DNA of 64,000 bases, from positions 530,893 through 594,892 of the forward strand of contig SCUL01000002.1 of the NCBI GenBank assembly GCA_004297205.1, read 5' to 3'. Shown here in pieces: positions 11,854 to 32,077 of the stretch (positions are counted from its first letter, which is position 1; every line of letters begins with the position of its first letter). A program made the translations under genes and the position numbers. The notes under the pieces are model-generated. The model worked only from the letters and a program-made list of their open reading frames with translations. It was not told the DNA's origin and ran no database searches. The DNA comes from Patescibacteria group bacterium. GTDB lineage: Bacteria > Patescibacteriota > Patescibacteriia > 2-12-FULL-57-11.

Positions 11854-11857
11854 TCCC

Positions 11858-13036: not shown

Positions 13037-13050
13037 GCGCGCTTCAACAT

Positions 13051-13327: not shown

Positions 13328-13369
13328 AGATTCTCACGCTCTCCGTCGGAATCCTAGTCGGTTCCCATT

Positions 13370-13404: not shown

Positions 13405-13426
13405 TCGGACGATAACCATATCTCCT

Positions 13427-14575: not shown

Positions 14576-14588
14576 GGCTCTCCGCCGT

Positions 14589-14624
14589 CCCCGCCTCCCT
14601 CGGAGGCGGGGATTTTGGTACACT
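14589..14624 (+). promoter_or_regulatory. conserved hairpin + T-tract + TGGTACACT promoter cassette (copy 2)
   Basis: Sequence ccccgcctccctcggaggcgggg atttt ggTACACT. It lies 12 nt upstream of the galU ATG and also serves as terminator for the upstream gene. Confidence 0.45.
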
Positions 14625-14636
14625 TCGGTCGTGCCT

Positions 14637-15521
14637 ATGTCGAAATCCTCCTCCATCCGCAAAGCCATCCTCCCCGTGGCAGGCCTCGGGACCCGGTTCC
14701 TGCCCGCGACCAAGGCCATGCCCAAGGAAATGCTGGCCGTCGTCGACAAGCCGGTCATCCAGTACATCGTGGAAGAAGTCGTGGCCAGCGGCATCGAAGA
14801 GATCATCTTCGTGACGGCGCTCGGCAAACGCGCCATCGAAGACCACTTCGACCGCAACTTTGAACTGGAGTACCGCCTCGAACAAAAGAAGAAGGAGAAG
14901 GAGCTGGGCGCGCTCAAGCAAATCGGCAAGATGGCCAGATTCGCCTTCGTCCGCCAGCAGAAGCCGCTCGGCGATGGCGACGCGATTCTCGCCGCGCTGC
15001 CGTTCATCGACCAGCACGAACCGGTCGCGGTGGTCTTCGGCGATGCCATCACGCGCTCCCGGAAGCCGGGCCTCGCCCAACTCATCGACGTCTACAACCG
15101 CTACCAGGATCCGGTCGTCGGCGTCACGGCCGTTTCCAAGAAGGACATCTCCAACTACGGCGTCATCGACGGACACAAGCTCGACGGCGCGGCCTACGAG
15201 ATCCATGGCTTCGTGGAAAAACCGTCGCCATCCGAAGCGCCGTCGAACCTGGCCGTGATGGGCGAGTACATCGTGACGCCGGACGTGCTCACACTTCTCA
15301 AAAAGCAAAAACCGGGCAAGGACGGCGAACTCAGGCTCGCCAACGCGCTGATCGCCCACCTCAAGGCCGGCCGCGCGCTCTACGGCTGCGCCGTGGAGGG
15401 CGAGTGGTTCGACTGCGGCTCCAAGCTCGGCTTCCTCCAAGCCCAGATCGCCTTCGGCCTGGCGCATCCGGAAACCGGCAAGGCGTTGCACAAACACCTG
15501 CGCTCGCTTCGGGCGTCATAA
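14637..15521 (+). CDS. galU: UTP--glucose-1-phosphate uridylyltransferase
   Basis: N-terminal KAILPVAGLGTRFLPATKAMPKEMLAVVDKPVIQYIVEE matches the GalU family. The start is ATG 14637; the track start 14631 is GTG. Confidence 0.85.
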   Translation: MSKSSSIRKAILPVAGLGTRFLPATKAMPKEMLAVVDKPVIQYIVEEVVASGIEEIIFVTALGKRAIEDHFDRNFELEYRLEQKKKEKELGALKQIGKMARFAFVRQQKPLGDGDAILAALPFIDQHEPVAVVFGDAITRSRKPGLAQLIDVYNRYQDPVVGVTAVSKKDISNYGVIDGHKLDGAAYEIHGFVEKPSPSEAPSNLAVMGEYIVTPDVLTLLKKQKPGKDGELRLANALIAHLKAGRALYGCAVEGEWFDCGSKLGFLQAQIAFGLAHPETGKALHKHLRSLRAS

Positions 15522-16963: not shown

Positions 16964-17779
16964 ATGCGCCGCCCCGCTCTCCTCGTCCTGCCGCTTCTCG
17001 TCGCCACCGGTTTCTTTGCGGCGCAACCGGCATTCGCACAGCTGCCGACGCTGGTTCCCGAGGCCTGCCGCGGCACGGCGGAGCTCGAGGAATGCGGCCT
17101 GAACGAAGCCGTGCAAGTATTCATCAACGTCGCCCAGTTCATCTTCGGCATTTCCGGCGCGGTGGCGCTCCTCATGTTCGTCTGGGGCGGCTTCTTGTGG
17201 CTGACCTCGGCCGGCAGTGCGGAAAAAGTGAAACAAGGACAGGCCGTGATCACCGGCGCCGTCATCGGCCTGCTCATCATCTTCGGGGCCTACGTCGGCG
17301 TGCAGTTCGTCGTCGGGGCGCTGCGCGGCACGGTCGCGCCGGGCGAGGTGATGATTCCGGGCGAGCGCTGCGGCAGCGGCGAGGCAGCAGGGCTCGCCGT
17401 CTATACCGGACGGGAAACCACGACGTCGACCGGCGGCCTGGAGTGCATTACGGATTGCGGGTCGCTCTCCGACCTGGGCTACGGACGGGAGGACCTCCGC
17501 GAAATCTCCGCGGCCGACTATGAATGCATCGACGGTCTGTTCCCGGACGAGGAAGAACCCATCAAATGCTGCCGGGCGCGCGCCGGCGGGTCCGGGTCCA
17601 CGGGAACCGGCGAAGGCCCGTCCTCGCCGCCCGAGGGCACCAGCGGCCGCAACAACTGCCGCTGTGCCAACACGACGGTTTCGGCACAAAGCACCTGCGC
17701 CCTGTGCGCCGCCTTCTGCGAATCGCGCGACAGCACCCTGTCCCAGTTCAACGGCGAACCGCTCACCCGTTGCCCCTGA
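16964..17779 (+). CDS. TrbC/VirB2-like pilin domain (N-terminal) fused to a C-terminal Cys-rich domain
   Basis: A signal peptide is followed by the pilin core FIFGISGAVALLMFVWGGFLWLTSAGSAEKVKQGQAVITGAVIGLLIIFGAY. The C-terminal region has about 12 cysteines (ECITDC, KCCRARAGG, NNCRCANTT, CALCAAFC). Confidence 0.7.
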   Translation: MRRPALLVLPLLVATGFFAAQPAFAQLPTLVPEACRGTAELEECGLNEAVQVFINVAQFIFGISGAVALLMFVWGGFLWLTSAGSAEKVKQGQAVITGAVIGLLIIFGAYVGVQFVVGALRGTVAPGEVMIPGERCGSGEAAGLAVYTGRETTTSTGGLECITDCGSLSDLGYGREDLREISAADYECIDGLFPDEEEPIKCCRARAGGSGSTGTGEGPSSPPEGTSGRNNCRCANTTVSAQSTCALCAAFCESRDSTLSQFNGEPLTRCP

Positions 17780-17793
17780 GAGCCGCTCCGGAA

Positions 17794-17817
17794 CCCCCGC
17801 CTTGGCGGGGGTTTTTC
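17794..17817 (+). terminator. Rho-independent terminator followed by a TATACT promoter
   Basis: Hairpin cccccgc cttg gcggggg followed by tttttcgtt. TATACT at 17838-17843 lies 9 nt before ATG 17853. Confidence 0.55.
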
Positions 17818-17852
17818 GTTCCTTCCCGGAAATGCGCTATACTGGGAGCCAT

Positions 17853-18731
17853 ATGCGCCGCACTCTCCTTCTGCTCGCTGCACTCGCCGTCCTGATCGCC
17901 CCCGTGCTGGCGGTCCCTTCATCCGCGGCCGCGGCCGACATCTGGCGTTGCACCTCCTGTGAATGCAACTGTGACGGAACGCCCGACTTCGAAAGTGGCG
18001 GCATTCCGGATCCCTCCCCGTTCGATGGGACCGATCCGCAGGGGACGTGCGACCGCTTCTGCTCCGGCGCCGACGGGTGCGACCGCGACGTCCCCCGCGA
18101 AGCCGCACGTGCCGTGAGCTGCACCAACCTCGGCCCTGCGGGCGGCGGCGCGGCGACCGGTTCCTGCTGGTGCATCAACGATGCAGGCACCTGCAGCCAC
18201 AACGCCGGCGTGACTGAAGGCAACTGCCGCGACCTCGCCGCCGGACCCTGCCGCGGCCAGCGCGTGGTGCGCTTTGAAGTCGAATACGACTGCTCGGTGT
18301 GTCTCGCCTCAAGCGGCTCGGGCTGCACGGCCGGCGCAGGCAGCTGTTCGGAGGAAACCATCGCCCGCTGCGAAGCGGGTGCGGGCGGCGGGCTTTCCCC
18401 GTCCGCGCCGGGCACCGGTACGACCGGTGACGTCGTCGGTCCCGGGGGCGGCCGCGGCGCACCGGCACCGACGTTGCCGAACCCGCTCGGCGGCACCACC
18501 GACATCCGTACCATCATCGGCCGCGTCATCAACGCCGCGCTCGGCATTTCCGGTTCCATCGCGCTTTTGATGTTCATCTGGGGTGGAATGCTTTGGTTGA
18601 CGTCGGGGGGCAGTCCTGAGAGAATACAGAAAGGAAAAAATACGATTGTCTGGGCCGTCTTGGGGCTCGTCCTCATCTTCGGCTCCTACGCGATCCTGAA
18701 CTTCGTGCTCGGAGCGATCCTCAGCGCGTAA
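17853..18731 (+). CDS. Cys-rich secreted domain (N-terminal) fused to a C-terminal TrbC/VirB2-like pilin domain
   Basis: ATG 17853 gives MRRTLLLLAALAVLIAPVLA. The N-terminal domain has about 24 cysteines (CTSCECNCDG, CDRFCSGADGCD, CWCINDAGTC). A Gly-rich linker follows, then the pilin core ALGISGSIALLMFIWGGMLWLTSGGSPERIQKGKNTIVWAVLGLVLIFGSY. Confidence 0.7.
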   Translation: MRRTLLLLAALAVLIAPVLAVPSSAAAADIWRCTSCECNCDGTPDFESGGIPDPSPFDGTDPQGTCDRFCSGADGCDRDVPREAARAVSCTNLGPAGGGAATGSCWCINDAGTCSHNAGVTEGNCRDLAAGPCRGQRVVRFEVEYDCSVCLASSGSGCTAGAGSCSEETIARCEAGAGGGLSPSAPGTGTTGDVVGPGGGRGAPAPTLPNPLGGTTDIRTIIGRVINAALGISGSIALLMFIWGGMLWLTSGGSPERIQKGKNTIVWAVLGLVLIFGSYAILNFVLGAILSA

Positions 18732-18830
18732 AAGGGGACGCACTATCCGAAGCGCGGGCGTGCGACGATCCGAAAACATCGGAACGCCGCAGCACCCGCA
18801 CTTCACCAATGAAAGGGGGTGACAACCTGC

Positions 18831-19202
18831 ATGCAACACATCAAACGCTTCGCATCCGGCATCGTGCCGTTCCTGATGCTCTCGCTGCCGATGGCCGCTC
18901 AGGCGGCCGGCGTCAACCTGGGTCTCACGAGCGACGTCGAAGGCGCGCTCGGTCTCGGTACTCAAGACGTCCGCGTGACCATCGCCCGGATCATCAACGT
19001 GTTCATGGGGCTCCTCGGCATCATCGCCGTGGTGATCATCCTCTACGGTGGATTCATCTGGATGACCGCCGCCGGCAACGAGGAACGCGTCGACAAGGCC
19101 CGCAAGATGATCGTGGCCGGCGTCATCGGCCTGGCCATCATCCTCTCGGCCTACGCCATCGCCCGCTTCGTGGTCAACTCGCTGGTCAACGCCACGAGCT
19201 AA
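18831..19202 (+). CDS. TrbC/VirB2-like pilin paralog
   Basis: ATG 18831 is preceded by AAAGGGGG at 10 nt. Core FMGLLGIIAVVIILYGGFIWMTAAGNEERVDKARKMIVAGVIGLAIILSAY. Confidence 0.7.
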   Translation: MQHIKRFASGIVPFLMLSLPMAAQAAGVNLGLTSDVEGALGLGTQDVRVTIARIINVFMGLLGIIAVVIILYGGFIWMTAAGNEERVDKARKMIVAGVIGLAIILSAYAIARFVVNSLVNATS

Positions 19203-19221
19203 CACCCGAAACACGGAACGG

Positions 19222-19246
19222 CCTCCCCAAACGGGGGGTCGTTTTG
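19222..19246 (+). terminator. weak terminator plus extended -10 (TGGTATACT)
   Basis: Hairpin cctcccc aaac gggggg followed by tcgtttt. TGgTATACT at 19245-19253 precedes a 50-nt leader containing hairpin GGGCGA..TCGCCC. Confidence 0.4.
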
Positions 19247-19303
19247 GTATACTGGGGGTGTCTGAATTAGGGCGATCGCAAGGCTCGCCCCTACGCCACA
19301 TCC

Positions 19304-19732
19304 ATGACTATGGTGCACCGTGCGCTTATCCGTATTTTCGGGGCTTCGGCAGGCGCTTCGCTCGTGCTCTGGAGCAGCCGCGCCGCGCTGGCTTTTTCGG
19401 TCGAAGACACCGGCCTTAAAACCACCGCCGGAGAAGCCGGCATCCCGACGAGTGAAGCCTCGCTGCCGGTGCTTGTGGGCACCATCCTGAACGGCGTGTT
19501 GTCGCTCGTCGGCGTCGTCTTTCTCGTGCTCATCGTCTGGGGCGGCTTCCTCTGGATGACGGCCCGCGGCAACGACCAGCAGGTGGAGAAGGCCAAAAAC
19601 CTGATCACCTCGGCCGTCATCGGGCTCATCATCATCGCCGGCGGTTACGCCATCACCAACTTCGTCCTGACGCAGATCATCGCCGCGACGACCGGCGCGG
19701 GCGAGGCGCCAGCTCCGGCCGACGGCGGCTAG
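19304..19732 (+). CDS. TrbC/VirB2-like pilin paralog
   Basis: Core LSLVGVVFLVLIVWGGFLWMTARGNDQQVEKAKNLITSAVIGLIIIAGGY. Signal peptide and Ala/Pro-rich tail. Confidence 0.75.
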   Translation: MTMVHRALIRIFGASAGASLVLWSSRAALAFSVEDTGLKTTAGEAGIPTSEASLPVLVGTILNGVLSLVGVVFLVLIVWGGFLWMTARGNDQQVEKAKNLITSAVIGLIIIAGGYAITNFVLTQIIAATTGAGEAPAPADGG

Positions 19733-19736
19733 TCCT

Positions 19737-20171
19737 ATGCGCGCCTCTTTCCGCAGCATCGCCGCCGGAGCAGGTTTGGCTCTCGCGCTCTCGACCGCCG
19801 CGCTGCCCGCCTTTGCACAGGGACTCGGCGGCGCCCAGGGCGAACTGGAGAAAGCCGGAAAAAAAGCCTTCGGCGAACAGGTCGTCAATCGCCCGCTCGA
19901 AGTCGTGGCCGGCCAGATCATCAACGCGTTCCTGTCGCTCTTCGGCGTCCTGTTCCTGGCCCTGATGGTCTACGGCGGCTACCTCTGGATGAACGCCCGC
20001 GGCAACGAGCAGCAAGTGGAGAAAGCAAAAAGCCTGATTACCGCCGCGGTCATCGGGTTGGTCATCGCCTTAGCCGGCTACATCATCACGCGCTTCGTCG
20101 TGAGCGGCATCCTCACGGCAACAACCGGCGCGGGCGAAGCACCGGCTCCGGCCGAAGAATCCGCACCCTGA
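19737..20171 (+). CDS. TrbC/VirB2-like pilin paralog
   Basis: Core LSLFGVLFLALMVYGGYLWMNARGNEQQVEKAKSLITAAVIGLVIALAGY. Follows the previous gene after 4 nt. Confidence 0.75.
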   Translation: MRASFRSIAAGAGLALALSTAALPAFAQGLGGAQGELEKAGKKAFGEQVVNRPLEVVAGQIINAFLSLFGVLFLALMVYGGYLWMNARGNEQQVEKAKSLITAAVIGLVIALAGYIITRFVVSGILTATTGAGEAPAPAEESAP

Positions 20172-20172
20172 T

Positions 20173-20556
20173 ATGCACCGCTTCTTCACCGCCGCCGCCT
20201 CGGCCATATTCGGCATTGCCGCGCCGACGGTCGTCTTTGCGGCCAGCGCCCTGGAACGGCTGGACAAGGCCGCCAATGAAGCATTTCCCGGCCAGCGCGA
20301 GCGCCAGGCCCCGGAAGTCGCCGGTCAGGTCATCAACTTCTTCATCGGCGTCCTCGGCATCCTGTTCCTCGTGCTCATGGTCTACGGCGGCTACCTCTGG
20401 ATGAACGCCCGCGGCAACGAGCAGCAGGTGGATAAAGCCAAGAGCCTCATCACCCAGGCAGTGCTCGGACTGATCATCGTCCTCGCCGGCTACGCCATCA
20501 CCTACTTCGTTGTCACCAACCTCGTGAACGCCACCGGCGGCGTCACCACGCCCTGA
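20173..20556 (+). CDS. TrbC/VirB2-like pilin paralog
   Basis: Core IGVLGILFLVLMVYGGYLWMNARGNEQQVDKAKSLITQAVLGLIIVLAGY. Follows the previous gene after 1 nt. Confidence 0.75.
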   Translation: MHRFFTAAASAIFGIAAPTVVFAASALERLDKAANEAFPGQRERQAPEVAGQVINFFIGVLGILFLVLMVYGGYLWMNARGNEQQVDKAKSLITQAVLGLIIVLAGYAITYFVVTNLVNATGGVTTP

Positions 20557-20559
20557 CCT

Positions 20560-20961
20560 ATGACGCGCCTCCGCACCTACGCCCGCCGATTCGCTGCCGC
20601 CGCGCCTCTCGCTGCCGCCTCGTTCTTTCTGACGGCCAACGCCATGGCCGCGTCGGGGCTCATCAACAACCTGCAGGACACGGGCGAAGCCGGATTCGGC
20701 GTCCGGGAACCGCGCTCGCTGCCGGTCACCGTCGGACGCATCATCAACGTCTTTCTCGGCATCCTCGGCATCTTCGCCGTGGTCCTCATCATCTACGCCG
20801 GCTACCTCTGGATGAACGCCCGCGGCAACGAGCAGCAGGTGGAGAAGGCCCGCAGCATCCTGACGCAGGCCGTGATCGGATTGATCATCATCCTGGCCAG
20901 CTACTCGATCGCCGGCTTCGTCGTCCGGAACCTCGTGAACGCCACGACCGGCACCCGCTAG
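20560..20961 (+). CDS. TrbC/VirB2-like pilin paralog
   Basis: Core LGILGIFAVVLIIYAGYLWMNARGNEQQVEKARSILTQAVIGLIIILASY. Follows the previous gene after 3 nt. It is the last gene of the array. Confidence 0.75.
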   Translation: MTRLRTYARRFAAAAPLAAASFFLTANAMAASGLINNLQDTGEAGFGVREPRSLPVTVGRIINVFLGILGIFAVVLIIYAGYLWMNARGNEQQVEKARSILTQAVIGLIIILASYSIAGFVVRNLVNATTGTR

Positions 20962-20970: not shown

Positions 20971-20996
20971 AAGCCCCCTTGCGGGGGCTTTTTTGA
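20971..20996 (+). terminator. Rho-independent terminator closing the pilin operon
   Basis: Hairpin agccccc ttgc gggggct followed by tttttt. Confidence 0.65.
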
Positions 20997-21070: not shown

Positions 21071-21991
21071 CTAGGGTGCTCCGCACCTCCTGCCGCCGAG
21101 CTCGTCCCAGCGGAGACTGAGAAGGTCGCCGCCGGGACCACTCGGATCGAAGTCGAAACTGCCTCCGGCGAGCCGCATGGGAGTCATCCCGAGCGGCGCG
21201 TCGTAGATCGTCACTACGACGTTGTGATGTCCCGGACCGACCGGAATGTAGGTGTAGGAGCCGGACAGCCTGTCGCGCCCCGGAGGGAGCAAGTAGGCCG
21301 TGCTGCGCACGCCATGGCTGTCGATCACGGGGATCGCAGGCCAGGCGCTGCCCATCTCGACAGGGATCACCACGCGGCCGTCCACTCGGACTTCCGCGGC
21401 GATGGTGAAGTGCGCGACACCGCCGCTCCCGAGACAGAACAGCCCGTTCCAGAGCCGCAGGCCGCGTCGAGACGACCAGGGCACCGGACGCCGGTGGAGG
21501 AAGCCCGGGAGCGACGTGACGAGCGGCATGCCGCCCGACATGCTCGCCGCAGCCTCCCCGATGTAGGGCAGCCGCGGCGTCGTCGGCTCTACCGGCACCA
21601 CCGTGGGCGGCTCTGCGACGCGCTCCTCGCGGAGCGCCCGCAGATCCTCCTCGAGCAACCGAAGCCGCTCGAGCAGGGCCGCACGCTCGGCATCCGCGAC
21701 GACCGCTTCCGCACGCTCGGCCGCGTCGTCGAGCGTCACGGCGGCGGGCGGTGACACGGGCGCCACCACCGGCGCGGCGGCGACCGTCTCCTCCGCGAGA
21801 CCGCGAAGGATCCGGATGCGCCGCTCGCTGGCGTCGGCGAGCGCCTCCTCGCCGCAGGCCCGGAGGCCCGCGACGGTCGCCTCGGTGGGCAGATCGACCA
21901 CGGGCGGACAGGGCGGCCGCTCGGCCTCCTGCGCCAGCACCGTGACCGGGACGAAGAGCGCGAGCGCGCAGACGACGATCGTCCGGCTCAT
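21071..21991 (-). CDS. secreted hypothetical protein (306 aa) with coiled-coil region
   Basis: ATG 21991 overlaps the upstream stop (ATGA). Signal peptide MSRTIVVCALALFVPVTVLAQEA. An Ala/Glu/Arg-rich helical segment is followed by a C-terminal globular domain. Confidence 0.55.
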   Translation of the reverse strand: MSRTIVVCALALFVPVTVLAQEAERPPCPPVVDLPTEATVAGLRACGEEALADASERRIRILRGLAEETVAAAPVVAPVSPPAAVTLDDAAERAEAVVADAERAALLERLRLLEEDLRALREERVAEPPTVVPVEPTTPRLPYIGEAAASMSGGMPLVTSLPGFLHRRPVPWSSRRGLRLWNGLFCLGSGGVAHFTIAAEVRVDGRVVIPVEMGSAWPAIPVIDSHGVRSTAYLLPPGRDRLSGSYTYIPVGPGHHNVVVTIYDAPLGMTPMRLAGGSFDFDPSGPGGDLLSLRWDELGGRRCGAP

Positions 21992-22596
21992 CGCGCACCT
22001 CCGTCCGTCGTTCCCTCGACCGTGTAGCCGTGGAACATGTCCACGGCCTCGCCGGTGGCCCGCTCGAGACGCTCGACGCGCCGCGAGAGGTCGGCCGAAC
22101 CGACCGCGCCGTAGCCCCCGACCGTGTCGGCGTAGGCCGAGGTCGGCCCCGTGTCGAACATCGGGAAGTAGTACCCGGGTCCGCCGACACCCCCGCCGCC
22201 GAAGTACGAGCCGAAGCTCGGGTCCTCGGAGAGCAGCGTCTGCAGCAGCCACGGGTACCGCCCGATGCAGGTCGAGAGGTCGCGCTCGCGCCCGTCGTCC
22301 GCGCCGTGCATGCACGCCGCGAGCTCCGGGGTGAGCGCCTCGATCAGCAGCGCGTGCGCGCGGCTGATGCCGGCGCGTGCCGTGATGCGGCCCGCCTCGG
22401 CCTCGGCCACCACGGTGGTGGCGCGAACCGAGCCGGCGGCCAGGATCGTCGACGACGGGGGCTCGGTGGAGCTCCCGCGGATCGACGCCCCGTGTCCGTC
22501 GTAGGACACGGGGTGCGAGAGGGAGATCCCTCCCGCGCAGCCCGCTCCCAGAAGGACGAGGGCCAGGATTCCACAGAAACAGTTGAGCTCGCGCAT
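21988..22596 (-). CDS. lipoprotein, unknown function (203 aa)
   Basis: ATG 22596 is preceded by AAGGAGAG at 7 nt. Lipobox LLGAGC. A Gly-rich segment GGGGVGGPGYYFP is present. Confidence 0.6.
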   Translation of the reverse strand: MRELNCFCGILALVLLGAGCAGGISLSHPVSYDGHGASIRGSSTEPPSSTILAAGSVRATTVVAEAEAGRITARAGISRAHALLIEALTPELAACMHGADDGRERDLSTCIGRYPWLLQTLLSEDPSFGSYFGGGGVGGPGYYFPMFDTGPTSAYADTVGGYGAVGSADLSRRVERLERATGEAVDMFHGYTVEGTTDGGAR

Positions 22597-22730
22597 CGTC
22601 GTTCTCTCCTTGGGAGCGGGTTTACGTGCCTCCCAGCACGGTGCCTTCCAGCACATCCCGGCCGATTTCATGATAAACAGGCCAAAATGTGCTGGAAAAC
22701 ACGACTTGGGATTCAAAGAACGAACGGCTG

Positions 22731-22760
22731 AATATACCAGAAAAAGGCCTTTTTGTCAAC
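22731..22760 (-). promoter_or_regulatory. strong sigma70 promoter (TTGACA-17-TGgTATATT) with a 125-nt structured leader
   Basis: The minus strand reads TTGACA aaaaggcctttttctgg TATATT. The leader contains a 9-bp inverted repeat CCAGCACAT..ATGTGCTGG and ends in the SD. Confidence 0.6.
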
Positions 22761-22847
22761 CCCCACTTTAACACGGGCAAAAAGAAGCGGGTGCCTCGGT
22801 GAGCCCTTGTGGGACCCAACCGAGACACCCGTTCGCGACCGGGCGCG

Positions 22848-24464
22848 TTACCGCCCGTAGTCGCTGTACGCAACCCGCCACGACTCGCTCTGGCAGGCCC
22901 CCACCGCGTCGCGGTAGGCCTCCCAGCCGCTGCGGCCGGCAGCGTCGGGACACTCGTCCCCGTGCTCCGCGAAGTAGGCCCGGATGCGGCCTTCCTCCGC
23001 GCGTGCCGGCGCCCAGGGGTCGCTCCGCCGCGGTGGCGGGGGCGACTCTCTGGAGGCCGACGTGGCCGGCGGCGGATCGCTGCGCGGGGGTTCCGCGCTG
23101 CGCTCCATCGCGGCGATGCGGGTGCGGCAGATCCCGCCCACCTCGTCCCATCGCGCATGCGCCACGATGGCGATGCCGGCGATGAGACTCACGGTCGTGA
23201 GCCAGCCGATGACGTTCCCGGTTCGCGGGAAGTACCGTCGAAGGCCCCACAGCACGCCCCAGATGAGCCAGAGAACCAGAACGAACAGGAATCCGAACGG
23301 GTTCGTCTGACAGAGCGTCTGGTTCGTCGGCCAGATGAGATGCGCAATGAAGACCAGGGTAGCAATGGTGCTCGCCACGGCGAGGAGGAAGATCCAGGCG
23401 TTCGCCAGGATCCAACCACCGCCGTCTCCACCGCCGTCGCCGCGCCCGACCGTTCCGGACGCCGCGATGCCGGGAATGCCCGCCTTTGCGCCGAGGCGCG
23501 CCTCACCCTCCGGCGGCTCTCTCAGGAGTCGCACGATCACCGAGATGACGGCGACGTGGAACCCGATGAAGCCGAGGAGGAGGAGCGCGCCGACCACGAC
23601 GCCGAGGACGTCTCCGCTGTGCGGCCACTGGGCCGCCACGGCGTGCTGCGTCAGCAGATCGGTGTGCGCCGGCACGTACCAGGTGATCCAGTTGTGGAAC
23701 AGCCGGTACCAGACGTTCGCCAGCAGCCCGTCGAGACCGACGGGCGCGGGCACCGCCATGGTGCTACCGCTCACGCCGCCGGCGAGCACCCTCCACCACT
23801 GGCCGAACACGGCCCGGAAGAGGATGGTCGCCACACCCCCGAAGATGTAGTGCAGCATGACCCCCGCGAGGAAGTCGAAGCCGAGCCCTACCTTTCGGCC
23901 GCGCTGGCGAAGCCAGAACGCCGCGGCAAGCATGCCGACGCCGACCATGCCGAGAACGGCGAGGGTCAGCACGTGCGGGAAGGGCACCATCCATGCCCCC
24001 ATCGTGAGCACCCAGGCCGGCAGGCAGAACGCCCGCTTGCCCAGCGTCATGATGGCCGCGCTGTTGAACAGCCGGATGTTGCCCTCTCCGTCCCGGACCT
24101 TGGGGTCCTGGACGCGAGCGAGCTGCCCACCCTCCCGGAGCACCTCCGCGATCTCTCCTGCAGGGATCTGCAGGAGGTCGACGCCGATGCGCAGCCGGAC
24201 CACGTAGATCCAGATGAGCGCGGCGAGGAGAAGCGCGGGCGGGAAGGCGGCGGCGAGGCCGAGAAGGGCGAGGAGCCACGACTCGACGAAGGCGCTGCAG
24301 ACCATCAGCCCCATGCCACCCGCGAAGGCGAGCACGAGGAGCGGGATGATCAGCAGTGACCACGCCCGGATGAAGGTCAGAATCGCCACGAAGGGCGACC
24401 AGACCAGGGCGAGGGCGGCCGTGTAGCCGTTCCACGCCTGCAGAGCTACGGTTCTCCAGTTCAT
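22848..24464 (-). CDS. polytopic membrane protein (538 aa) with a C-terminal soluble Cys-containing domain
   Basis: ATG 24464 is preceded by AGGAGG at 5 nt. About 12 TM helices. The C-terminus reads YFAEHGDECPDAAGRSGWEAYRDAVGACQSESW. Confidence 0.6.
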   Translation of the reverse strand: MNWRTVALQAWNGYTAALALVWSPFVAILTFIRAWSLLIIPLLVLAFAGGMGLMVCSAFVESWLLALLGLAAAFPPALLLAALIWIYVVRLRIGVDLLQIPAGEIAEVLREGGQLARVQDPKVRDGEGNIRLFNSAAIMTLGKRAFCLPAWVLTMGAWMVPFPHVLTLAVLGMVGVGMLAAAFWLRQRGRKVGLGFDFLAGVMLHYIFGGVATILFRAVFGQWWRVLAGGVSGSTMAVPAPVGLDGLLANVWYRLFHNWITWYVPAHTDLLTQHAVAAQWPHSGDVLGVVVGALLLLGFIGFHVAVISVIVRLLREPPEGEARLGAKAGIPGIAASGTVGRGDGGGDGGGWILANAWIFLLAVASTIATLVFIAHLIWPTNQTLCQTNPFGFLFVLVLWLIWGVLWGLRRYFPRTGNVIGWLTTVSLIAGIAIVAHARWDEVGGICRTRIAAMERSAEPPRSDPPPATSASRESPPPPRRSDPWAPARAEEGRIRAYFAEHGDECPDAAGRSGWEAYRDAVGACQSESWRVAYSDYGR

Positions 24465-24474
24465 CTCTTCCTCC

Positions 24475-25989
24475 TCAGATCTTCAGGTTCCGAATGCCGT
24501 TGGTGATGTCGCCCGTGACCGTCCCGGCGATGTCCGCGCCGAGCTGGCTGAGCATCTTGCCGGTACGACCCGCGAAGGCCGCCACCGAGCGCGATGCGCC
24601 AGCGTCCTTGATGAGCTGCATCCGCTGCTTGAGCAGGTCGAGCGTGAGCTCGCCCTTGCGCTCCGGGATCGCCATCAGGCGCGCCCAGAAGTCGTCCCAG
24701 GTCAGCGCCGGCACCGAAGCCGTCGCCGCCGGATGCATCCGCTCGAGCGTCGTCAGACGACCCTCGAAGATCGGCTTGGTGAGCGCGACCGTCCGCTTGG
24801 GAAGCGACAGGACGCGCTGCTTGATGACAGCCAGGGTGAGCGGCGCGCCGCCGGCGGGCGGGGCGATGAGCCCCTGCGCCTGCGTGACGGTCGCGACCCG
24901 CGACTCTGCCTCGGCGATGAGCGCCGCGGCCTCGCCCGGAGCCACCGTCACGGCGGTTGCCGTGAACGTGCTCCAGGTCACGCTCGCGGCGACGACCGCC
25001 GGCAGACCCCCTGCGTCCGCCGGAGCGGAGAACAGGTAGACCATGCGGTCGGCGTGGCCGGCGTGCGGCGCGAGCCGCCGCAGGGTGTCCGTGAAGTCGT
25101 CCGGATCCGCGTACTCGACGCGGAGCCAGTCGACCTGGGCGGCGATCTGCGTGAAGGCGACCGCCGGAACGGCGGGCGCCGCCACGGCCGGCAGCGGTGC
25201 CAGCAGGCCGGTGAGCTGCCCGTCGCGCGTGATGCGCTTGCGCAGCTCCTCGTAGGCCGCCGGACGCTTGGTCGCCTCGCAGTTGGTCTCGACGAACTTC
25301 ACGACCTCGAGTCGGGCGTTGTTCCCGGCGAGATCCGTGTCGAACGGCGGGGGCGGCAGCGGCGTCGCACTCAGGGTCACCCCTTCGTGCGCGTAGTTGA
25401 GGTGCTGGTGGATGTCCGCCTGCACCTCCGCCGCGAGCTGTCTCTCCGTCGGGTCCAGTGACCTGAGGCCGCTGTCGAGCAGAGCGCCGATCTCCGGGTG
25501 CTTGTTGAGCACTTCGGAGGGCGACATCTCGCGCGGGCCGGCCGGAGCCGCCGGAGCGGTGCCCGCGGCCGGAGCCGCCGGGCCGGTGACGCCCTTGCCG
25601 TCCTGTTCCTCGCGGAGGCGGCGGGTGAAGCCCTCCGCGAACTCGCTGGACCAGGCACGCGGACGCTCGTGGTCGGTCCACTTCATCGCGACGAAGTTGG
25701 CCGCGGCCGGACCGACGTACTCGAGGATGCTCGCGGGCGCGACCAACAGGAGGGCGCGCGCCGCGGGCATCTTCAGGAAGTGCTCCGCGAACCGCACGCC
25801 GAGCTTGTCGGCCTGCTTGTTGACCGCCGAATCGGCGAGAACCTCGCCGAAGGTGTCGGTCGGACTGATGTCCAGCACCGCGTTGAGCAGGGCCTTGCCC
25901 CGCCCCACCTGCCGCCTGAGCGGGTCGGCGTTGTCGTCGTCCCCGCCCTTCCTACCGCCGCCCTTGCGGGCACCTCGATCGTCTGCCAT
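24475..25989 (-). CDS. hypothetical protein (504 aa), no recognisable domain
   Basis: ATG 25989 is preceded by GGAGGA at 7 nt. The stop lies 10 nt before the downstream ATG (operon). Ala/Pro-rich linkers. Confidence 0.6.
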   Translation of the reverse strand: MADDRGARKGGGRKGGDDDNADPLRRQVGRGKALLNAVLDISPTDTFGEVLADSAVNKQADKLGVRFAEHFLKMPAARALLLVAPASILEYVGPAAANFVAMKWTDHERPRAWSSEFAEGFTRRLREEQDGKGVTGPAAPAAGTAPAAPAGPREMSPSEVLNKHPEIGALLDSGLRSLDPTERQLAAEVQADIHQHLNYAHEGVTLSATPLPPPPFDTDLAGNNARLEVVKFVETNCEATKRPAAYEELRKRITRDGQLTGLLAPLPAVAAPAVPAVAFTQIAAQVDWLRVEYADPDDFTDTLRRLAPHAGHADRMVYLFSAPADAGGLPAVVAASVTWSTFTATAVTVAPGEAAALIAEAESRVATVTQAQGLIAPPAGGAPLTLAVIKQRVLSLPKRTVALTKPIFEGRLTTLERMHPAATASVPALTWDDFWARLMAIPERKGELTLDLLKQRMQLIKDAGASRSVAAFAGRTGKMLSQLGADIAGTVTGDITNGIRNLKI

Positions 25990-26103
25990 GGGCAGTTCCT
26001 CCGTGTTCTTTTGGTTTGTGGGTTAAGTTATCAACGAGCGACACTAAGCGTCGGTCAGATGACCCAAGCCATGTACACGGAGGTCCGCGCACAATGACGA
26101 GCC

Positions 26104-26132
26104 ACCATACCAAAAAAAGCCGATTTTGTCAA
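26104..26132 (-). promoter_or_regulatory. sigma70 promoter (TTGACA-17-TGgTATGGT) with a 108-nt leader
   Basis: The minus strand reads TTGACA aaatcggctttttttgg TATGGT. The architecture is nearly identical to the promoter at 22731-22760. Confidence 0.55.
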
Positions 26133-26175
26133 CCGTCATCTGAACACCCGTTCAACCCCATGTTACAATCCCGCC

Positions 26176-28071
26176 ATGCCCAAAAACCCCAAAATCATAC
26201 TTGCCTCCGGTGCCGCCGTTTTTGTCGTCCTGGTCATGGCCTTGGCCGGCTGGAAATGGGCCCACGGCGCCTACAACGGCATTGATTTGGCGTATTTCTC
26301 CCAGGCCGTCTGGAACACGGCACATCTGCGGCCGTTCGCCTTCACCATCCACCCCGGGCTCACCCTCGGCGACCACGCCGAGTGGGTCCTCGTCCTCTTG
26401 GCGCTTCCCTACGCCGTACTGCCCCACCCCTTGCTGCTTGTCTTCATCCAAGCCGGGGCGCTGGCCGCCGGGGCGCTGGCCGTGCATCGAATAGCGGCGC
26501 GCCCACTCCCGTCCGGCTGGGCGCTTGGCGCGGCGCTGGGGTATTTGTTCCTGCCGACCATCGGCGGCGCGGCGTTGTTTGAATTCCACGCTTTGGCGCT
26601 GGCCGTACCGTTGCTGCTTTTTGCTGCCGACGCCTTTCTTGAAAAACGTTTCTTCCGGTTCCTGATCTTCCTCGCGGCGGCGCTGCTCGTCCGCGAAGAC
26701 GTGGCCCTGGTCGCGGCCATGTTCGGCATCATCGCGGCAATGGAACGCCGGCCGCTGCGCTGGATCCTGGCCCCGCTCGTGCTCTCCGCCGGCTGGTTCG
26801 TGGCGATGCTGCTCGTCATCAAGCAATTCTCGGTCGGCGGCGGTTTCAAGTTCTTCGCCTACTACGGTTGGCTGTGGCCGTTCGACCTCGGCGTCTTCGT
26901 CCGACATCTCCTGCGCCTGACGCAGCTCGAATTCCTGCTGGCGCTGCTCATGCCCGTCCTCTTCTTGCCGCTGCTGCGGCCGAAGTGGCTGCTGCTCTCG
27001 TTGCCGGGCTGGCTGCTGCTGGCACTCTCCTCCTCCGGCGCCGGTGCGGGATTGCTTGGCACGCATTACGCGCTCTTACTGATCCCGGGCTTCGTGCTGG
27101 CGACGCTCGACGGGCTCGCATGGGCACGGCAAGCCGTGCCCCTACAGCGAATATTGCCTGGGACGCATCGTGAACGCGTGATCGCGCTCGTACTTGCCAC
27201 GGCCGTCATCTTCTCTGCGGTCGCGCTCGGACCGTTCGTGCGCGGCGCCGTGATCGTCGCGACAAGCCCGAAGAACGCGGCTCTCCCGCAGGCGCTGGCC
27301 CTGGTCCCGCCCGAGGCTTCGGTCGCGGCGAGCGCGCGTTTCCTGCCGCATCTCGCGCAGCGCAGCGAGTTGTACGCGCTCCATTATCTCATGCTCGGCA
27401 CGACGCAATTCGCCGAAGCGCCATATGACGTGCCCGCGCCGGAATTCTTGCTGTATGACGAGTCGGACCTCCTGGCTTGGCACGCCAACTTCCCGACGCT
27501 CGGTTGGACGCGCGACCGCTATCGCCCCGGCTTTGCCCGGCTGCGCGCGCTCATCGACCGTGGCGGCTACGGCGTCGTCTTCCGCGACGGCGGCATGACC
27601 CTCTGGCAGCGCGGCGCGCCACGCCCGCAGCTCACGGGCGCACCTGAAGGAAAACGGGAAGGAGCGCCGGGCATCCGCATCGTGGCGCTGCGAGAGCCGT
27701 CCTTCTGTCCGGGACGCGCCGGCATCTGTCCCCTCTTGGTGTTCACCTCGGACGACGTACGCGGCGACGACCTTCTCCTGCGCTTCTACGAAAACAAAAC
27801 GGCGCCGCGGCTCATGACCTTCGGCGTCGTTCCGACCTTCTCGTGGGCGGCGAACATTCCGATCACCGTTCCTGTCACCGTGCTGTCACCGGACGTCTCC
27901 GGCCCTGTTTCTTTGGAACTTGTTTCCGCGGAAGGTGATTTGATACTGGACCCGTTGGGCACGGCCGCCGTCTCCTGGCGCGAGGTGCGCGCGCAGGGTC
28001 CAGCCGTCACGTTCACCCCTTCGCAGCTGCCCGCGCCTTCCGCCGCGCCCGCTCCCGACGCAAATCCATGA
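26176..28071 (+). CDS. DUF2079-family polytopic membrane protein (putative glycosyltransferase-like)
   Basis: 631-aa multi-TM protein with the YFSQAVWN...GDHAEW...FEFHALAL pattern. TACAAT lies 6 nt upstream of the ATG. The 3' end overlaps the convergent GT2 gene by about 59 nt. Confidence 0.6.
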   Translation: MPKNPKIILASGAAVFVVLVMALAGWKWAHGAYNGIDLAYFSQAVWNTAHLRPFAFTIHPGLTLGDHAEWVLVLLALPYAVLPHPLLLVFIQAGALAAGALAVHRIAARPLPSGWALGAALGYLFLPTIGGAALFEFHALALAVPLLLFAADAFLEKRFFRFLIFLAAALLVREDVALVAAMFGIIAAMERRPLRWILAPLVLSAGWFVAMLLVIKQFSVGGGFKFFAYYGWLWPFDLGVFVRHLLRLTQLEFLLALLMPVLFLPLLRPKWLLLSLPGWLLLALSSSGAGAGLLGTHYALLLIPGFVLATLDGLAWARQAVPLQRILPGTHRERVIALVLATAVIFSAVALGPFVRGAVIVATSPKNAALPQALALVPPEASVAASARFLPHLAQRSELYALHYLMLGTTQFAEAPYDVPAPEFLLYDESDLLAWHANFPTLGWTRDRYRPGFARLRALIDRGGYGVVFRDGGMTLWQRGAPRPQLTGAPEGKREGAPGIRIVALREPSFCPGRAGICPLLVFTSDDVRGDDLLLRFYENKTAPRLMTFGVVPTFSWAANIPITVPVTVLSPDVSGPVSLELVSAEGDLILDPLGTAAVSWREVRAQGPAVTFTPSQLPAPSAAPAPDANP

Positions 28072-28759
28072 GGTAGTCGCGGATGGTGCGATACAGATTG
28101 ACCGTGCTCTTGCGCCGCTTGTCGCGCGCTTCGACCCAGGACACCGGAATTTCCGCCAGCCGCATGCCGGATTCTTCCGCGGCGAGCAGCAACTGCGTGT
28201 CGAAGAACCAGCCCGGGTGGTCGACCCGGGTTTTCAGTTTCTCCCAGGCCTCGCGCCGCACCGCCTTGAAGCCGCATTGCGCGTCGCGCGCCTTGAGTCC
28301 GGTCGTGAGCCGGGCCAGCAGGTTATAGCCGCGGGAGGTGATTTCCCGCAGCAACGAACGGTCGATTTCCGACATCGGCGCGAACCGCGAGCCGTAGGCC
28401 AGGTCGGCGCCGCGGCTGATTTCGCCAAGCAGGTGCAGGAGCGCCATCAGGTCCACGGAGAGATCGGCGTCCATGTAACAGAGCGTGTCCTCGGACGCCT
28501 CGTTCCAGGCGCGCTGCAGTGCCCGGCCGCGGCCGGACGCGTCCAGATGGAACCAGCGGATGCGCGGGTCCGCCGCGAGTGCAGCGGCAACGGCGGGTGT
28601 CGCGTCCGTCGAACCGTTGTCGGCGATGCAGATGCTCCAGCGGCCGAACGTCGGCATGCCTTCCAGAAAACGGACAAGCAGACGCACATTCTGCTCAAGG
28701 ACGAGCGCTTCGTTCTTGGTGGGCAAGACGATCAAAAACGAGCGGGCGGGCGCGGACAT
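28013..28759 (-). CDS. family 2 glycosyltransferase (polyprenyl-phosphate glycosyltransferase, DPM1/GtrB-like)
   Basis: LIVLPTKNEALVLEQNV...CIADNGSTDAT...YMDADLS matches the GT2 DXD pattern. ATG 28759 lies 2 nt after the upstream stop. The track start 28765 is TTG. Confidence 0.75.
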   Translation of the reverse strand: MSAPARSFLIVLPTKNEALVLEQNVRLLVRFLEGMPTFGRWSICIADNGSTDATPAVAAALAADPRIRWFHLDASGRGRALQRAWNEASEDTLCYMDADLSVDLMALLHLLGEISRGADLAYGSRFAPMSEIDRSLLREITSRGYNLLARLTTGLKARDAQCGFKAVRREAWEKLKTRVDHPGWFFDTQLLLAAEESGMRLAEIPVSWVEARDKRRKSTVNLYRTIRDYLMDLRRERARRKARAAAKG

Positions 28760-28761
28760 AA

Positions 28762-30405
28762 TCAACGCGATCCAGCGTACTCCTCGACGGCGAAGATCGC
28801 CACTTGCCCCGCGCGGTAGATTTCATGGAATCCCGGGCCGGACGGCTCCCATTTCCAAACCTCGCGCTCCAAGGGACCGATGTAGACGTGGGTGACGCCG
28901 GCACGTCTCAAGAAACGGTGGCGCGCCGCGTCATCACGTGCCTGGCCCGCGAGCCAGACGAGCGCGTCGAGCTTGGACTCGATCGCCACCGTCTCCGCCC
29001 AGTGGCCGGCGTAGACGGTGCGCGCCGTCATGGCGGCGATGCCGTTGGCGCGCTCGGCCACGGCCACAATGACCGCGTCTTCCGGCAGCGTTTTGCGGAT
29101 CCACGACATGGCCGCGCGGTCTTCCGCGGAGATCCAGACCGGGAAGGGTTGGGTGAACCAGGCTGACGTGGACAACAGGTTCATGGCACCGCTCGCGGCG
29201 AAGAGCAGGAAGAAACTGGCTGTGGCAAAAACGCGTCGGACCGGACCGAGCGTCATTCCCGGGCGCGTCGCAGCAAAGGCCTCCCACAAACGCAGGAGCT
29301 CCGGCGCGACCAAAAGAGCGAGCGGCACCAGCAACCCCTCCGTCATTTTCCGTTGCCAGGGAATCGGTGCATAAACGAAGGCGGCGTGTACCAGAAGCCA
29401 AGCAGCAAGAAAGCGCCAGGTCGGCGTGCGCACCAGACGCCCGCGCCACAACGTGATGAGTGCAAGCGGCAGAAACGCGCCGGCGGCGACCAGCACCGCG
29501 GACAGCCCCGGCATCGGAGTCTGGTTCAGACTGTTGCGCAGAAGCGTCGTCACGTCGGTCAGCGACAGCCAGCCGTAGGGAAGCGCGCCGAGCAGACCGG
29601 CGGCGCACAACACGGCGATGCCGCCGAGCAGCGCCCAGAAGCGTTTCCCGGTCGGTGCCAGAGCGAGCCAGCCCGCGCCGGAGACGGCGAGGACGACCGG
29701 CACGTAGTACGGGTGGAATTGCCCAAGCAGCGCAAAGACCGCGGCGGCGAGGCCGAGCCAGCGCCAGGACCGCGTCCGTGCAAAGCGGTAGTCGGCGGAG
29801 ATGACGGTGACGAGCGCCGCGAGCGACAGGACGAAGTGCGGCGAGGATAGTGCGGACAGCAACAGCGTGGCTTCCGGTACCCACAGGTCGATCGGCAGAT
29901 CCATTCCCTCCGGCGGCAGGCCAAGGAGTGACCGGCCGACCACCCACCAGGCGCCCCAGCCCGCGCCGAACGCTGCGAGCAGCAGGAAGACGCGCCGGGT
30001 GCGCGCGTCATCAAGGAAGGTCCGACCGGCAAAGACGAGCGCCCCGACGGCAACGGGGATCGACAACAGGCGGCTGAACGGAAAAATCCACTCGGGACCG
30101 AGCTGCGTGACGCGGGCGATGAGTCCGACGGCCAGCCACGACAGGTTCAGGAAACGGTGCGGCTGCGGTTCTGTCGTGAAGACGTCGCGCAGCAACCAGT
30201 GTCCTTGGCGGACCTGTTCGATGTAGGCGTAGTAGACGCCGGTGTCGCTGCCGATGAAAGGCAGGGTGCCGGAAGGCGCGGCCAAGATGCGTCCGGCAAG
30301 CTCCGGCAGCGCGGCCAGCGCGACAAGCGCCAGCGCGACAAGCGCGGCAAAGCGCAGCTCACTGCGCCGTTCCGGAAGGAAGCGCATAGATGATGCCGTC
30401 GGCAT
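28762..30405 (-). CDS. GT-C-type polytopic membrane protein with C-terminal periplasmic domain (ArnT/PMT-like, putative)
   Basis: 547-aa protein with about 12 TM helices and a soluble C-terminal domain. It is a paralog of the upstream gene. The start is ambiguous: ATG 30405 or ATG 30387. Both overlap the upstream gene. Confidence 0.55.
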   Translation of the reverse strand: MPTASSMRFLPERRSELRFAALVALALVALAALPELAGRILAAPSGTLPFIGSDTGVYYAYIEQVRQGHWLLRDVFTTEPQPHRFLNLSWLAVGLIARVTQLGPEWIFPFSRLLSIPVAVGALVFAGRTFLDDARTRRVFLLLAAFGAGWGAWWVVGRSLLGLPPEGMDLPIDLWVPEATLLLSALSSPHFVLSLAALVTVISADYRFARTRSWRWLGLAAAVFALLGQFHPYYVPVVLAVSGAGWLALAPTGKRFWALLGGIAVLCAAGLLGALPYGWLSLTDVTTLLRNSLNQTPMPGLSAVLVAAGAFLPLALITLWRGRLVRTPTWRFLAAWLLVHAAFVYAPIPWQRKMTEGLLVPLALLVAPELLRLWEAFAATRPGMTLGPVRRVFATASFFLLFAASGAMNLLSTSAWFTQPFPVWISAEDRAAMSWIRKTLPEDAVIVAVAERANGIAAMTARTVYAGHWAETVAIESKLDALVWLAGQARDDAARHRFLRRAGVTHVYIGPLEREVWKWEPSGPGFHEIYRAGQVAIFAVEEYAGSR

Positions 30406-31951: not shown

Positions 31952-32077
31952 GACACCAGTATATAGGACGACTGAAGAAAAGAGAGGCTTGAAACAAGCC
32001 CCTCCCCCTACGAATCTCTGCGGACCACGGGCCTTGCCGGTCCTCACCCAGCATGGATGTGAGGACCAGCAGGATCC

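Follow-up and report, generated by a model that had tools for sequence, protein, structure and literature searches.

A four-gene, probably envelope-located module with conserved promoters and structured leaders in groundwater Patescibacteria

Extended -10 sigma70/sigmaA promoters ('TGn', or -16 region) of E. coli and Gram-positive bacteria combine TTGACA, a 17-bp spacer and TG at -15/-14. The ompA and aprE leaders and the ROSE and fourU thermometers are examples of stabiliser stem-loops in the 5' leader and of translational leaders that occlude the ribosome-binding site. Gram-positive surface adhesins such as Cnm, CNA and Ace carry collagen-binding, immunoglobulin-like (Ig-like) N2 domains. 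The VirB2-like pilin genes of Patescibacteria, part of their type IV secretion systems (T4SS), form arrays of 2-11 genes (PMC12102498). Here we compare with these systems a module of four genes, A1, A2, B1 and B2, in a window of 64,000 nucleotides (nt; the whole stretch of DNA analysed, from contig SCUL01000002.1) of a high-GC (~65%) groundwater member of the Patescibacteria. The module consists of two minus-strand transcription units, A1-A2 (25989-22848) and B1-B2 (22596-21071), each headed by a promoter (P_A, P_B) and a leader (leader A, leader B).

P_A and P_B have the TTGACA hexamer, the spacer length and the TG of the extended -10 class, and share with it a -10 hexamer resembling TATAAT and T-rich sequence ahead of the TG. 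Unlike the generic members of this class, both carry an A-run straight after the -35 hexamer, and the A-run/T-run spacer is absent from other promoters of the window (rpoB, tRNA genes). The leaders resemble those of ompA and aprE and the ROSE and fourU thermometers in a stable hairpin that begins a few nt from the (here predicted) start, in their length, and in upstream stretches complementary to the Shine-Dalgarno (SD) sequence ahead of an SD-dependent start codon. They differ in having no likeness to Rfam families, in an SD occlusion that stays at the level of shuffled sequences, and in stems conserved in both pairing and sequence. Like the Cnm, CNA and Ace N2 domains, the C-terminal domain of B2 is a predicted beta-sandwich on a secreted protein, but the matches (E 0.014-0.04, template-modelling scores (TM-scores) ~0.1-0.25, 4-8% identity) indicate a likeness of fold class only, and B2 has neither the sortase signal nor the repeat architecture of Gram-positive surface adhesins. 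With the T4SS of Patescibacteria (PMC12102498) the module shares its position next to a VirB2-like array, the presence of secreted and membrane proteins, and a reduced genome of the epibiont type; its proteins nevertheless match no component profile, and it is transcribed separately and convergently.

We read the module, with a probability of roughly 0.6, as a lineage-specific set of four surface or membrane proteins expressed from two independent units through strong transcription and leader-RNA control. The genes, their SD sites and their coupling had been proposed in an earlier, sequence-only reading of this DNA and were all found in place; an independent gene call on the Logan assembly of the same organism gave the same four genes:

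25989-24475, minus strand: A1, 504 aa; all-alpha model (predicted local distance difference test, pLDDT, 72), no signal peptide and no clear transmembrane segment; orphan
24464-22848, minus strand: A2 (TAK05134.1, locus tag EPO33_04095), 538 aa; polytopic, ~10 transmembrane helices by hydropathy
22596-21988, minus strand: B1, 202 aa; lipoprotein-like, with a signal peptide, an invariant G-C-[AG]-G and a Gly-rich segment
21991-21071, minus strand: B2, 306 aa; secreted, with a Sec-type signal peptide and cleavage near VLA|QE

A1 and A2 are separated by 10 nt, with an SD, GAGGAGG, in the gap region that overlaps the A1 stop codon, and B1 and B2 overlap in the sequence ATGA. As judged from this arrangement, translation of A2 appears to be coupled to that of A1, and translation of B2 to that of B1.

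Each unit starts from a near-consensus promoter:

26132-26104, minus strand: P_A, TTGACA-aaatcggctttttttgg-TATGGT, with the -35 hexamer at 26132-26127, the -10 hexamer at 26109-26104 and a 17-nt spacer ending in TGG
22759-22731, minus strand: P_B, TTGACA-aaaaggcctttttctgg-TATATT, with the -35 hexamer at 22759-22754, the -10 hexamer at 22736-22731 and a 17-nt spacer ending in TGG

The two promoters are as alike as had been claimed, being identical at 23/29 positions. Measured against TATAAT, their -10 hexamers match at 5/6 (TATATT) and 4/6 (TATGGT) positions. In a 12-kb scan (17-29 kb) they were the two best promoter-like sites, scoring 10/12 (P_A) and 11/12 (P_B), with TG in both; this region contains five promoter-like sites, compared with 0.8 +/- 0.9 in shuffles. 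The 29-nt motif common to both was found, at up to three mismatches, only at P_A and P_B in the 64 kb (0/100 shuffles). The generic pattern TTGACA-N14-TGN-TANNNT has six sites in the window, including sites upstream of rpoB and of a SpoIID-like gene.

Loci of the module were recovered from contigs of relatives: about a dozen (L002-L013), and a further one, L023, from Hainich groundwater. Nine orthologous loci give the consensus sequences TTGACAAaaccgncnTTTTntggTAnGgT for P_A and TTGACAaannnncnntTTTCTGGTATatT for P_B. TTGACA is invariant in 9/9 orthologues of each promoter, and the TG is retained in 9/9 orthologues of P_B and 6/9 of P_A. The positions kept across orthologues are the -35 hexamer, the ensuing A-rich stretch, the T-run with TGG and the -10 hexamer. 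The GC-rich core of the spacer varies freely, its GGCC palindrome with it; the P_B of L012 has other sequence even in place of the A-run, and the identity between P_A and P_B within one genome spans 17-24 of 29 positions. A role of the palindrome as a shared operator was rejected, since the core is not kept, and co-regulation of the two units through a shared spacer is unproven; leaders A and B are also unrelated to each other. Given the variable core in relatives, the resemblance of P_A and P_B is best read as that of two near-optimal promoters of one type (TTGACA, A-rich stretch, T-run, TGn, TATAAT-like hexamer). Co-regulation of both units at transcription initiation is possible but gains no specific support from this comparison.

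Two further promoters of the window are of related interest. That of the SpoIID-like gene (10361-10389, minus strand), TTGACATTTTGGCCAAAAAATGCTATATT, has a mirror-image spacer (T-run, GGCC, A-run) and a leader of only ~19 nt. The divergent DUF2079 gene next to A1 has a promoter-like TGAACA-17-TACAAT (26141-26176, plus strand), whose -10 hexamer ends 6 nt before the ATG. Its -35 hexamer lies 8 bp from that of P_A on the opposite strand, so that the two promoters stand back to back, and its TACAAT box is kept in close orthologues.

The leaders measure ~108 nt (A) and ~128 nt (B); the transcription start sites, and hence these lengths, are predictions from promoter position. Both leaders contain evolutionarily conserved hairpins, which bears out the earlier description of long structured leaders. 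Leader A comprises the following elements:

26103-25990, minus strand: leader A, the 5' untranslated region (UTR) of A1, ~108 nt from a predicted start near 26097
about 26098-26068, minus strand: hairpin H1, 13 bp, beginning ~6 nt from the predicted start site
about 26064-26053, minus strand: hairpin H2, 4 bp, with a U-A pair changed to C-G in three sequences
26083-26075, minus strand: CCTCCGTGT, complementary to the SD region ACACGGAGG (26006-25998)

A conserved single-stranded stretch, TCGTTGATAACTTAACCCACAAA, is also present. In L006 and L010, H1 is rebuilt from different sequence with a GAAA loop. RNAalifold and pair counts over the orthologues found 92.5% of cells paired, against 24-48% with the partner strand slid, and the covariation score of leader A was reached by 0/500 shuffles. 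From the -35 hexamer to the start codon, P_A and leader A are 66-87% identical in nt to their orthologues, compared with 52-73% for the coding sequence (CDS) of A1. The covariance model of leader A (R1) hits each locus exactly once, on the sense strand, and has no other hit in 186 kb; a search of JGI/ENA metagenomes with the leader A pattern gave one true and one chance match. A leader peptide, MAWVI*, was considered and ruled out, its stop codon not being kept in L002.

Leader B is organised around one long hairpin:

22730-22597, minus strand: leader B, the 5' UTR of B1, ~128 nt from the predicted start site
22698-22645, minus strand: long P1-P2 hairpin, 24-27 pairs, -35.6 kcal/mol
22635-22630 and 22616-22611, minus strand: small hairpin TGGGAG/CTCCCA beside the SD
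22609-22606, minus strand: GGAG, the SD of B1

The 9-bp inverted repeat noted earlier, CCAGCACAT (22695-22687) and ATGTGCTGG (22656-22648), is present and lies within the P1-P2 hairpin. The 5' stretch CCGTTCGTTCTTTGA is near-invariant among orthologues, and the near-invariant 5' stretch CGUUCGUUCUUUG is able to pair with the SD region. In leader B, 93% of cells are paired, against 40-55% with the partner slid, and the apex of the hairpin accepts an inserted sub-hairpin in L005 and L008. The UGGGAG/CUCCCA hairpin would form at the expense of the outer part of the long one. P_B and leader B together, from the -35 hexamer to the start codon, are 72-78% identical in nt between the window and its orthologues, a value lowered by a duplication in the window. 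Covariance model R2, built for leader B, likewise recovers a single copy, in sense orientation, at each locus and no further copy in 186 kb, and the leader B pattern searched against GTDB genomes gave one true and eight chance matches. An in-frame upstream extension of B1 (TTG at 22716) was ruled out by a stop codon there in L002.

The duplication just mentioned is a 15-nt tandem repeat, GTGCTGGAAGGCACC followed by GTGCTGGGAGGCACG (22654-22640 and 22639-22625), found in the window genome only and absent from 9/9 orthologues. It lengthens the long hairpin and frees the second copy to pair with CUCCCA beside the SD.

In both units, sequence conservation sets in sharply at the -35 hexamer and continues to the SD. 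By comparison, the CDSs of the module are 51-76% identical in nt and well-conserved flanking genes 64-84%, and the stretch between P_B and the preceding terminator is rich in indels. That terminator marks the end of operon A:

22830-22779, minus strand: intrinsic terminator at the end of A2, GGGTGTCTCGG...CCGAGGCACCC followed by CTTCTTTTT (U-run CUUCUUUUU)

It combines a stable GC-rich hairpin (-38.5 kcal/mol, z = -4.99) with a U-run at the operon end, as expected of an intrinsic terminator, and is kept in 6/6 aligned loci. With their own promoters and this conserved terminator in between, the two SD-led units are indeed separate. The minimum free energy of the leaders has z-scores of -2.4 to -6 against dinucleotide shuffles (about -3 to -6 for leader B). 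The promoters, leaders and terminator are under purifying selection, and covariation backs the leader hairpins. Neither leader matched Rfam in permissive scans (the best score, for mir-96 on leader B, was 20 bits against a gathering score of 65), and in a scan of the whole window only tRNAs reached gathering scores. In every orthologue, the SD is buried in the minimum-energy fold; sequestration of the SD as a statistically supported feature was nonetheless rejected, as shuffled leaders pair the SD too. Taken together, the comparisons suggest that the leaders are most likely functional RNA elements, or possibly DNA-level elements, which would protect the transcript and tune SD-dependent initiation.

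The module also stands apart from its surroundings in translation initiation. Among 36 genes checked for a GGAG-type SD within 20 nt of the start, all four module genes have one, compared with 3/32 other genes, whose starts are those of the longest open reading frames (ORFs) and may be imperfect. Of these three, an aminoacyl-tRNA synthetase gene has a clear SD, and GT2 and a 547-aa hypothetical protein gene have weak ones. The genes for rpoB, rpoC, recA, ftsK and all the pilins are among those that have none (examples start at 6553, 14631, 26176, 41471-44740, 48177 and 51318). The SD sites of the module are kept in orthologues, those of A2 and B2 in all of them. In several window genes, RuvB and the divergent DUF2079 gene among them, a TAnnnT box precedes the start codon by 6-9 nt. 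The position of this -10-like box suggests that these and similar genes are probably leaderless, and the contrast drawn earlier between the module and leaderless housekeeping genes is thus real.

None of the four proteins has a credible match in Pfam, NCBIfam, PHROGs or PADLOC, in agreement with the sequence-only reading, which had seen no recognisable domain. The only PHROG match joins a short stretch of B2 to a PHROG of unknown function (E = 0.0034). Profiles of the four families matched nothing among PDB sequences below E = 0.1 (E >= 0.11), the nearest PDB sequence match of B1, the lipoprotein DotD, being not significant (E = 0.63). Foldseek searches with the A1 and B2 models against PDB and BFVD returned no match at E <= 0.001. 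Relatives are few: six for A1 among 1.84 billion representatives in an exhaustive phmmer search (62-34% identity), one for A2 in a word-indexed search, profile included, and 11 members in the B2 family by profile, none of them annotated.

The description of the products as secreted or membrane proteins holds for A2, B1 and B2. It does not hold for A1, which has no signal peptide or clear transmembrane segment and is probably a cytoplasmic or membrane-peripheral partner. Conserved in A2 are three loops, one with QIPxGE..VLRE.GQ..RVQDP.VRDGEGNIR, a basic one with RQRGRK and one with GRGD, as well as a Cys-containing domain at the C-terminus. By the positive-inside rule, the basic RQRGRK places the loop between transmembrane helices 5 and 6 inside, so that the C-terminal Cys domain and the Cys of the loop between helices 8 and 9 would face outward. 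In B1, a hydrophobic N-terminus and the G-C-[AG]-G are found in 6/6 sequences. Measured against the lipobox [LVI][ASTVI][GAS]C, the -3 position fits in one group of sequences (ISGC, IGGC) and deviates in another (GAGC, GVGC); two more Cys residues are conserved. The N-terminus of B2, MSRTIVVCALALFVPVTVLA|QE, is hydrophobic over residues 5-23 and was seen by inspection to be kept in 11 family members. B2 also has a conserved Cys pair, a variable Pro/Ala-rich and coiled-coil middle, and then a conserved C-terminal beta-sandwich (about residues 177-295). In A2, B1 and B2, the conserved Cys residues fall in portions predicted to face outward. The B2 model (pLDDT 66) has N-terminal helices and the coiled coil, then the beta-sandwich. 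Its Foldseek matches are generic Ig-like ones, the best being adhesin N2 domains (E = 0.014).

Gene order around the module is fixed in all loci long enough to be judged (L003, L006, L008, L010, L011, L012 and L013): SufS, NifU, Fd, Pyr_redox, PGI, two polytopic hypotheticals, GT2 and DUF2079 (opposite strand) on one side, then A1 A2 and B1 B2, then the T4SS_pilin array (opposite strand), a solute-binding protein and NTP_transferase. The synteny comparison that had been proposed thus places the module at the same position, with collinear flanks, in every judgeable locus, from which we infer vertical inheritance. The module appears to be a stable, vertically inherited part of the chromosome in one narrow clade of high-GC groundwater Patescibacteria. 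Its proteins are 30-63% (A1), 29-61% (A2), 31-76% (B1) and 32-69% (B2) identical to their orthologues, and flanking proteins compared with the same genomes are 59-88% identical. Third-position identity at conserved residues is alike for module and flanks. Lower protein identity at similar third positions indicates that amino-acid change in the module is ~2-3x faster than in the flanks.

The middle regions of the module proteins are rich in indels. The coiled-coil region of B2 is present in some orthologues and absent from others, and A1 of L008 and L009 has only 351 aa, the central ~150 residues being missing (L008 10001-11056). A 290-nt gap between A1 and A2 in L003 (11564-11853) proved to stem from a miscalled start codon: in this locus A2 begins directly behind A1 with a Pro/Ala-rich N-terminal extension, which L005 and L011 also have. 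The locus L010/L016 (CAZYLV010000010.1, GCA_964648865.1) is titled 'uncultured Gammaproteobacteria bacterium', yet it is collinear with the window, gene for gene, over >20 kb; the label of CAZYLV010000010.1 is probably wrong.

On its far side, operon B meets a pilin array:

20973-20988, both strands: bidirectional terminator hairpin GCCCCC-GCAA-GGGGGC with a T-run on each strand
16964-20961, plus strand: pilin array, with 6-7 divergent T4SS_pilin (PF18895) genes in tandem, some of them longer (271 and 403 aa)

Operon B and the array converge on this terminator, which separates the end of B2 from that of the array and is common to both.

Several points weigh against the reading of the module as a lineage-specific envelope set under leader-RNA control. 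The covariation was drawn from 8-9 related sequences with few independent events, and the alternative P1/P3 pairing of leader B (P3 being the small hairpin beside the SD) is 5-12 kcal/mol less stable and rests on one compensatory event in L006. The probability that the SD is unpaired averages 0.17-0.30 in dinucleotide shuffles, and a fraction of 0-0.45 of the shuffles has a value no higher than the observed one. Stem sequence is conserved beyond the needs of a stabiliser hairpin, which could instead be due to a binding protein or to a DNA-level function. The search for further copies of the motifs covered ~7% of the genome; the structure models of A1 and B2 are moderate (pLDDT 72 and 66, predicted template-modelling scores (pTM) 0.29-0.43), and none of the four proteins is assignable to a function by the searches run. 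The leaders might alternatively be riboregulators responsive to a ligand or factor (riboswitch-like, a thermometer, or the target of a protein or small RNA) that switch translation of both operons on and off by a choice between H1 and an anti-SD:SD pairing in leader A, and between full P1 and P3 in leader B. In leader A, CCUCCGUGU lies in H1 and is also perfectly complementary to the SD region ACACGGAGG, so that the two pairings are mutually exclusive; L006 and L010 do not have this anti-SD, and a different CUCC pairs with their SD. In leader B, the 3' strand of P1 includes the whole 5' strand of P3, and the compensatory change in L006 turns a G-C pair of P3 into A-U. Covarying helices and possible exclusive pairings are present, and stem and single-stranded sequence is conserved above pairing needs. 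Against a switch stand SD pairing not significantly above that of shuffles, the absence of a conserved multi-helix junction or an evident aptamer-like pocket, and leaders that have no Rfam match and occur once per locus. An iso-energetic P1/P3 switch is unsupported, as P3 ensembles are less stable than full P1 in the orthologues by the margin given above, and the 15-nt duplication of the window genome abolishes the P1/P3 competition, which a strict switch would tolerate poorly. The leaders may be true switches, but on balance we regard a switch of both operons as doubtful.

The two remaining alternatives concern the origin and the partners of the module. The sequence-only reading had considered a foreign origin. 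A horizontally acquired or mobile island would fit the GC content of the module (0.70-0.72 against 0.62-0.67 in neighbouring genes), the SD found at all four of its genes and at few others in the window, and proteins that have no relatives outside the clade. The GC excess is real, but it is confined to codon positions 1 and 2 and tracks the Ala+Gly+Pro+Arg content (37-42%), suggesting a product of fast or loosely constrained evolution under GC pressure. GC at third codon positions (GC3) is core-like (0.87-0.91 against 0.89-0.90 in rpoB/rpoC; pilins are alike), which leaves no anomaly at the codon level. The module further keeps an identical position and flanks in about a dozen related genomes, in which the proteins of these flanks differ by 12-41%. 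The 21-26 kb interval and its surroundings hold no mobility genes, the nearest tRNA lies at 13.2 kb, and no integrase, tRNA target or flanking direct repeats (the repeats judged by eye only) were seen in the sequence and ORF lists. A1 and B2 have no relatives among IMG/VR viral contigs, and none of the proteins has a credible PHROG or PADLOC match. Recent transfer is largely refuted by these comparisons, and a foreign island is very unlikely overall, although an ancient acquisition by the ancestor of the clade is conceivable. The main rival takes the module as an accessory part of the adjacent VirB2-like pilin system, with A2 as a diverged VirB6-like platform, B1 as a VirB7/DotD-like lipoprotein, B2 as a pilus adhesin and A1 as a cytoplasmic or secreted partner. 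In every locus long enough to show it, the module adjoins a T4SS_pilin array of 6-7 genes, and the mix of polytopic, lipoprotein and secreted Ig-like proteins resembles the accessory sets of monoderm T4SS. VirB6 is scarce or absent in some classes of Patescibacteria, for which extreme divergence has been suggested, and pilin arrays of the phylum are often far from virB4 (PMC12102498); we count both in favour of this explanation, together with the weak DotD match of B1 and the adhesin matches of B2. These matches are not significant, and no T4SS profile (TrbL/VirB6, VirB4, VirB8 etc.) matches the four proteins at E <= 0.1. A VirB4-type ATPase was absent both from the larger window genes scanned, whose sole FtsK/AAA match is the chromosomal FtsK, and from the Pfam annotations of syntenic loci. 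The module runs towards the array from promoters of its own and ends in its own terminators, and its family is limited to a tiny clade whereas pilin arrays are widespread. Since the whole ~30 kb is collinear, adjacency of module and array carries little information, and a pilin-accessory role seems unlikely to us.

Of the earlier notion of a co-regulated accessory envelope module, possibly of foreign origin, the envelope module with special expression signals and structured leaders stands, the foreign origin does not, and a shared operator is unsupported. In the reading that we prefer, that of a lineage-specific envelope set, unit A runs from a strong extended -10 promoter through the ~108-nt leader, A1 and the coupled A2 to the intrinsic terminator, and unit B from a promoter of the same type through the ~128-nt leader, B1 and the ATGA-coupled B2 to the bidirectional terminator. 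The proteins would form an assembly at the surface or membrane under diversifying or relaxed selection, for instance in contact with the host of an epibiont or with phage. The leaders would act on the mRNA: their 5'-proximal hairpins may protect the transcript and, together with stretches able to pair with the SD, may fix or adjust the level of SD-dependent translation in a genome whose genes mostly have no SD.

The remaining window is ordinary chromosome, with genes for RuvB, RecA, FtsK, rpoB/rpoC, an aminoacyl-tRNA synthetase, SufS/NifU, PGI and YchF. Genes of a large envelope-glycan neighbourhood surround the module (26176-32047 and 10321-15521). Their products are DUF2079 (~12 transmembrane helices), GT2, a Wzx-like flippase, a ligase or polymerase of the Wzy_C type, a solute-binding protein, an NTP_transferase and the two polytopic hypotheticals of 547 aa (7 transmembrane helices) and 562 aa (9 transmembrane helices), which have no Pfam match. 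A second high-GC patch (0.70-0.72) at 45145-47909 on the plus strand holds the orphan genes C1 (486 aa, Cys-rich and Pro/Ala-rich, no Pfam match) and C2 (179 aa); these genes are preceded by TTGACAAAAACTCCTGGCTGTGATAGCCT. All-against-all BLASTP found no paralogy between the module proteins and other orphans of the window, C1 and C2 included.

Patescibacteria (the Candidate Phyla Radiation) make up a large and mostly uncultured share of bacterial diversity. To our knowledge, how they build their surface, attach to hosts and regulate their genes is largely unknown, and regulatory RNAs are poorly charted in the phylum. Evolution that is fast relative to the rest of the genome is typical of molecules that face a host, phage or the environment. 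The locus supplies four unclassified, probably envelope-located protein families that evolve much faster than the surrounding genome, and two compact non-coding elements with clear purifying selection, covariation-backed structure and no Rfam counterpart. That the promoters and leaders are better conserved than the proteins suggests unrecognised control at the RNA level rather than a foreign insertion. The proteins and leader motifs are new within familiar categories, namely lineage-specific envelope proteins and structured 5' UTRs; with no new mechanism established, the locus is a well-defined candidate and not a discovery. It also displays, in one genome, a split of translation initiation between leadered SD operons and mostly SD-less or leaderless neighbours. 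In a bolder version, which we think quite improbable, the leaders would be undescribed, Patescibacteria-specific classes of cis-regulatory RNA that gate SD-dependent translation of a fast-diversifying surface complex (A2, B1 and B2 with their partner A1) for host contact or for the VirB2-like pilus. If this were true, a mostly SD-less, leaderless genome would possess a dedicated, switchable expression channel for its host-interaction genes.

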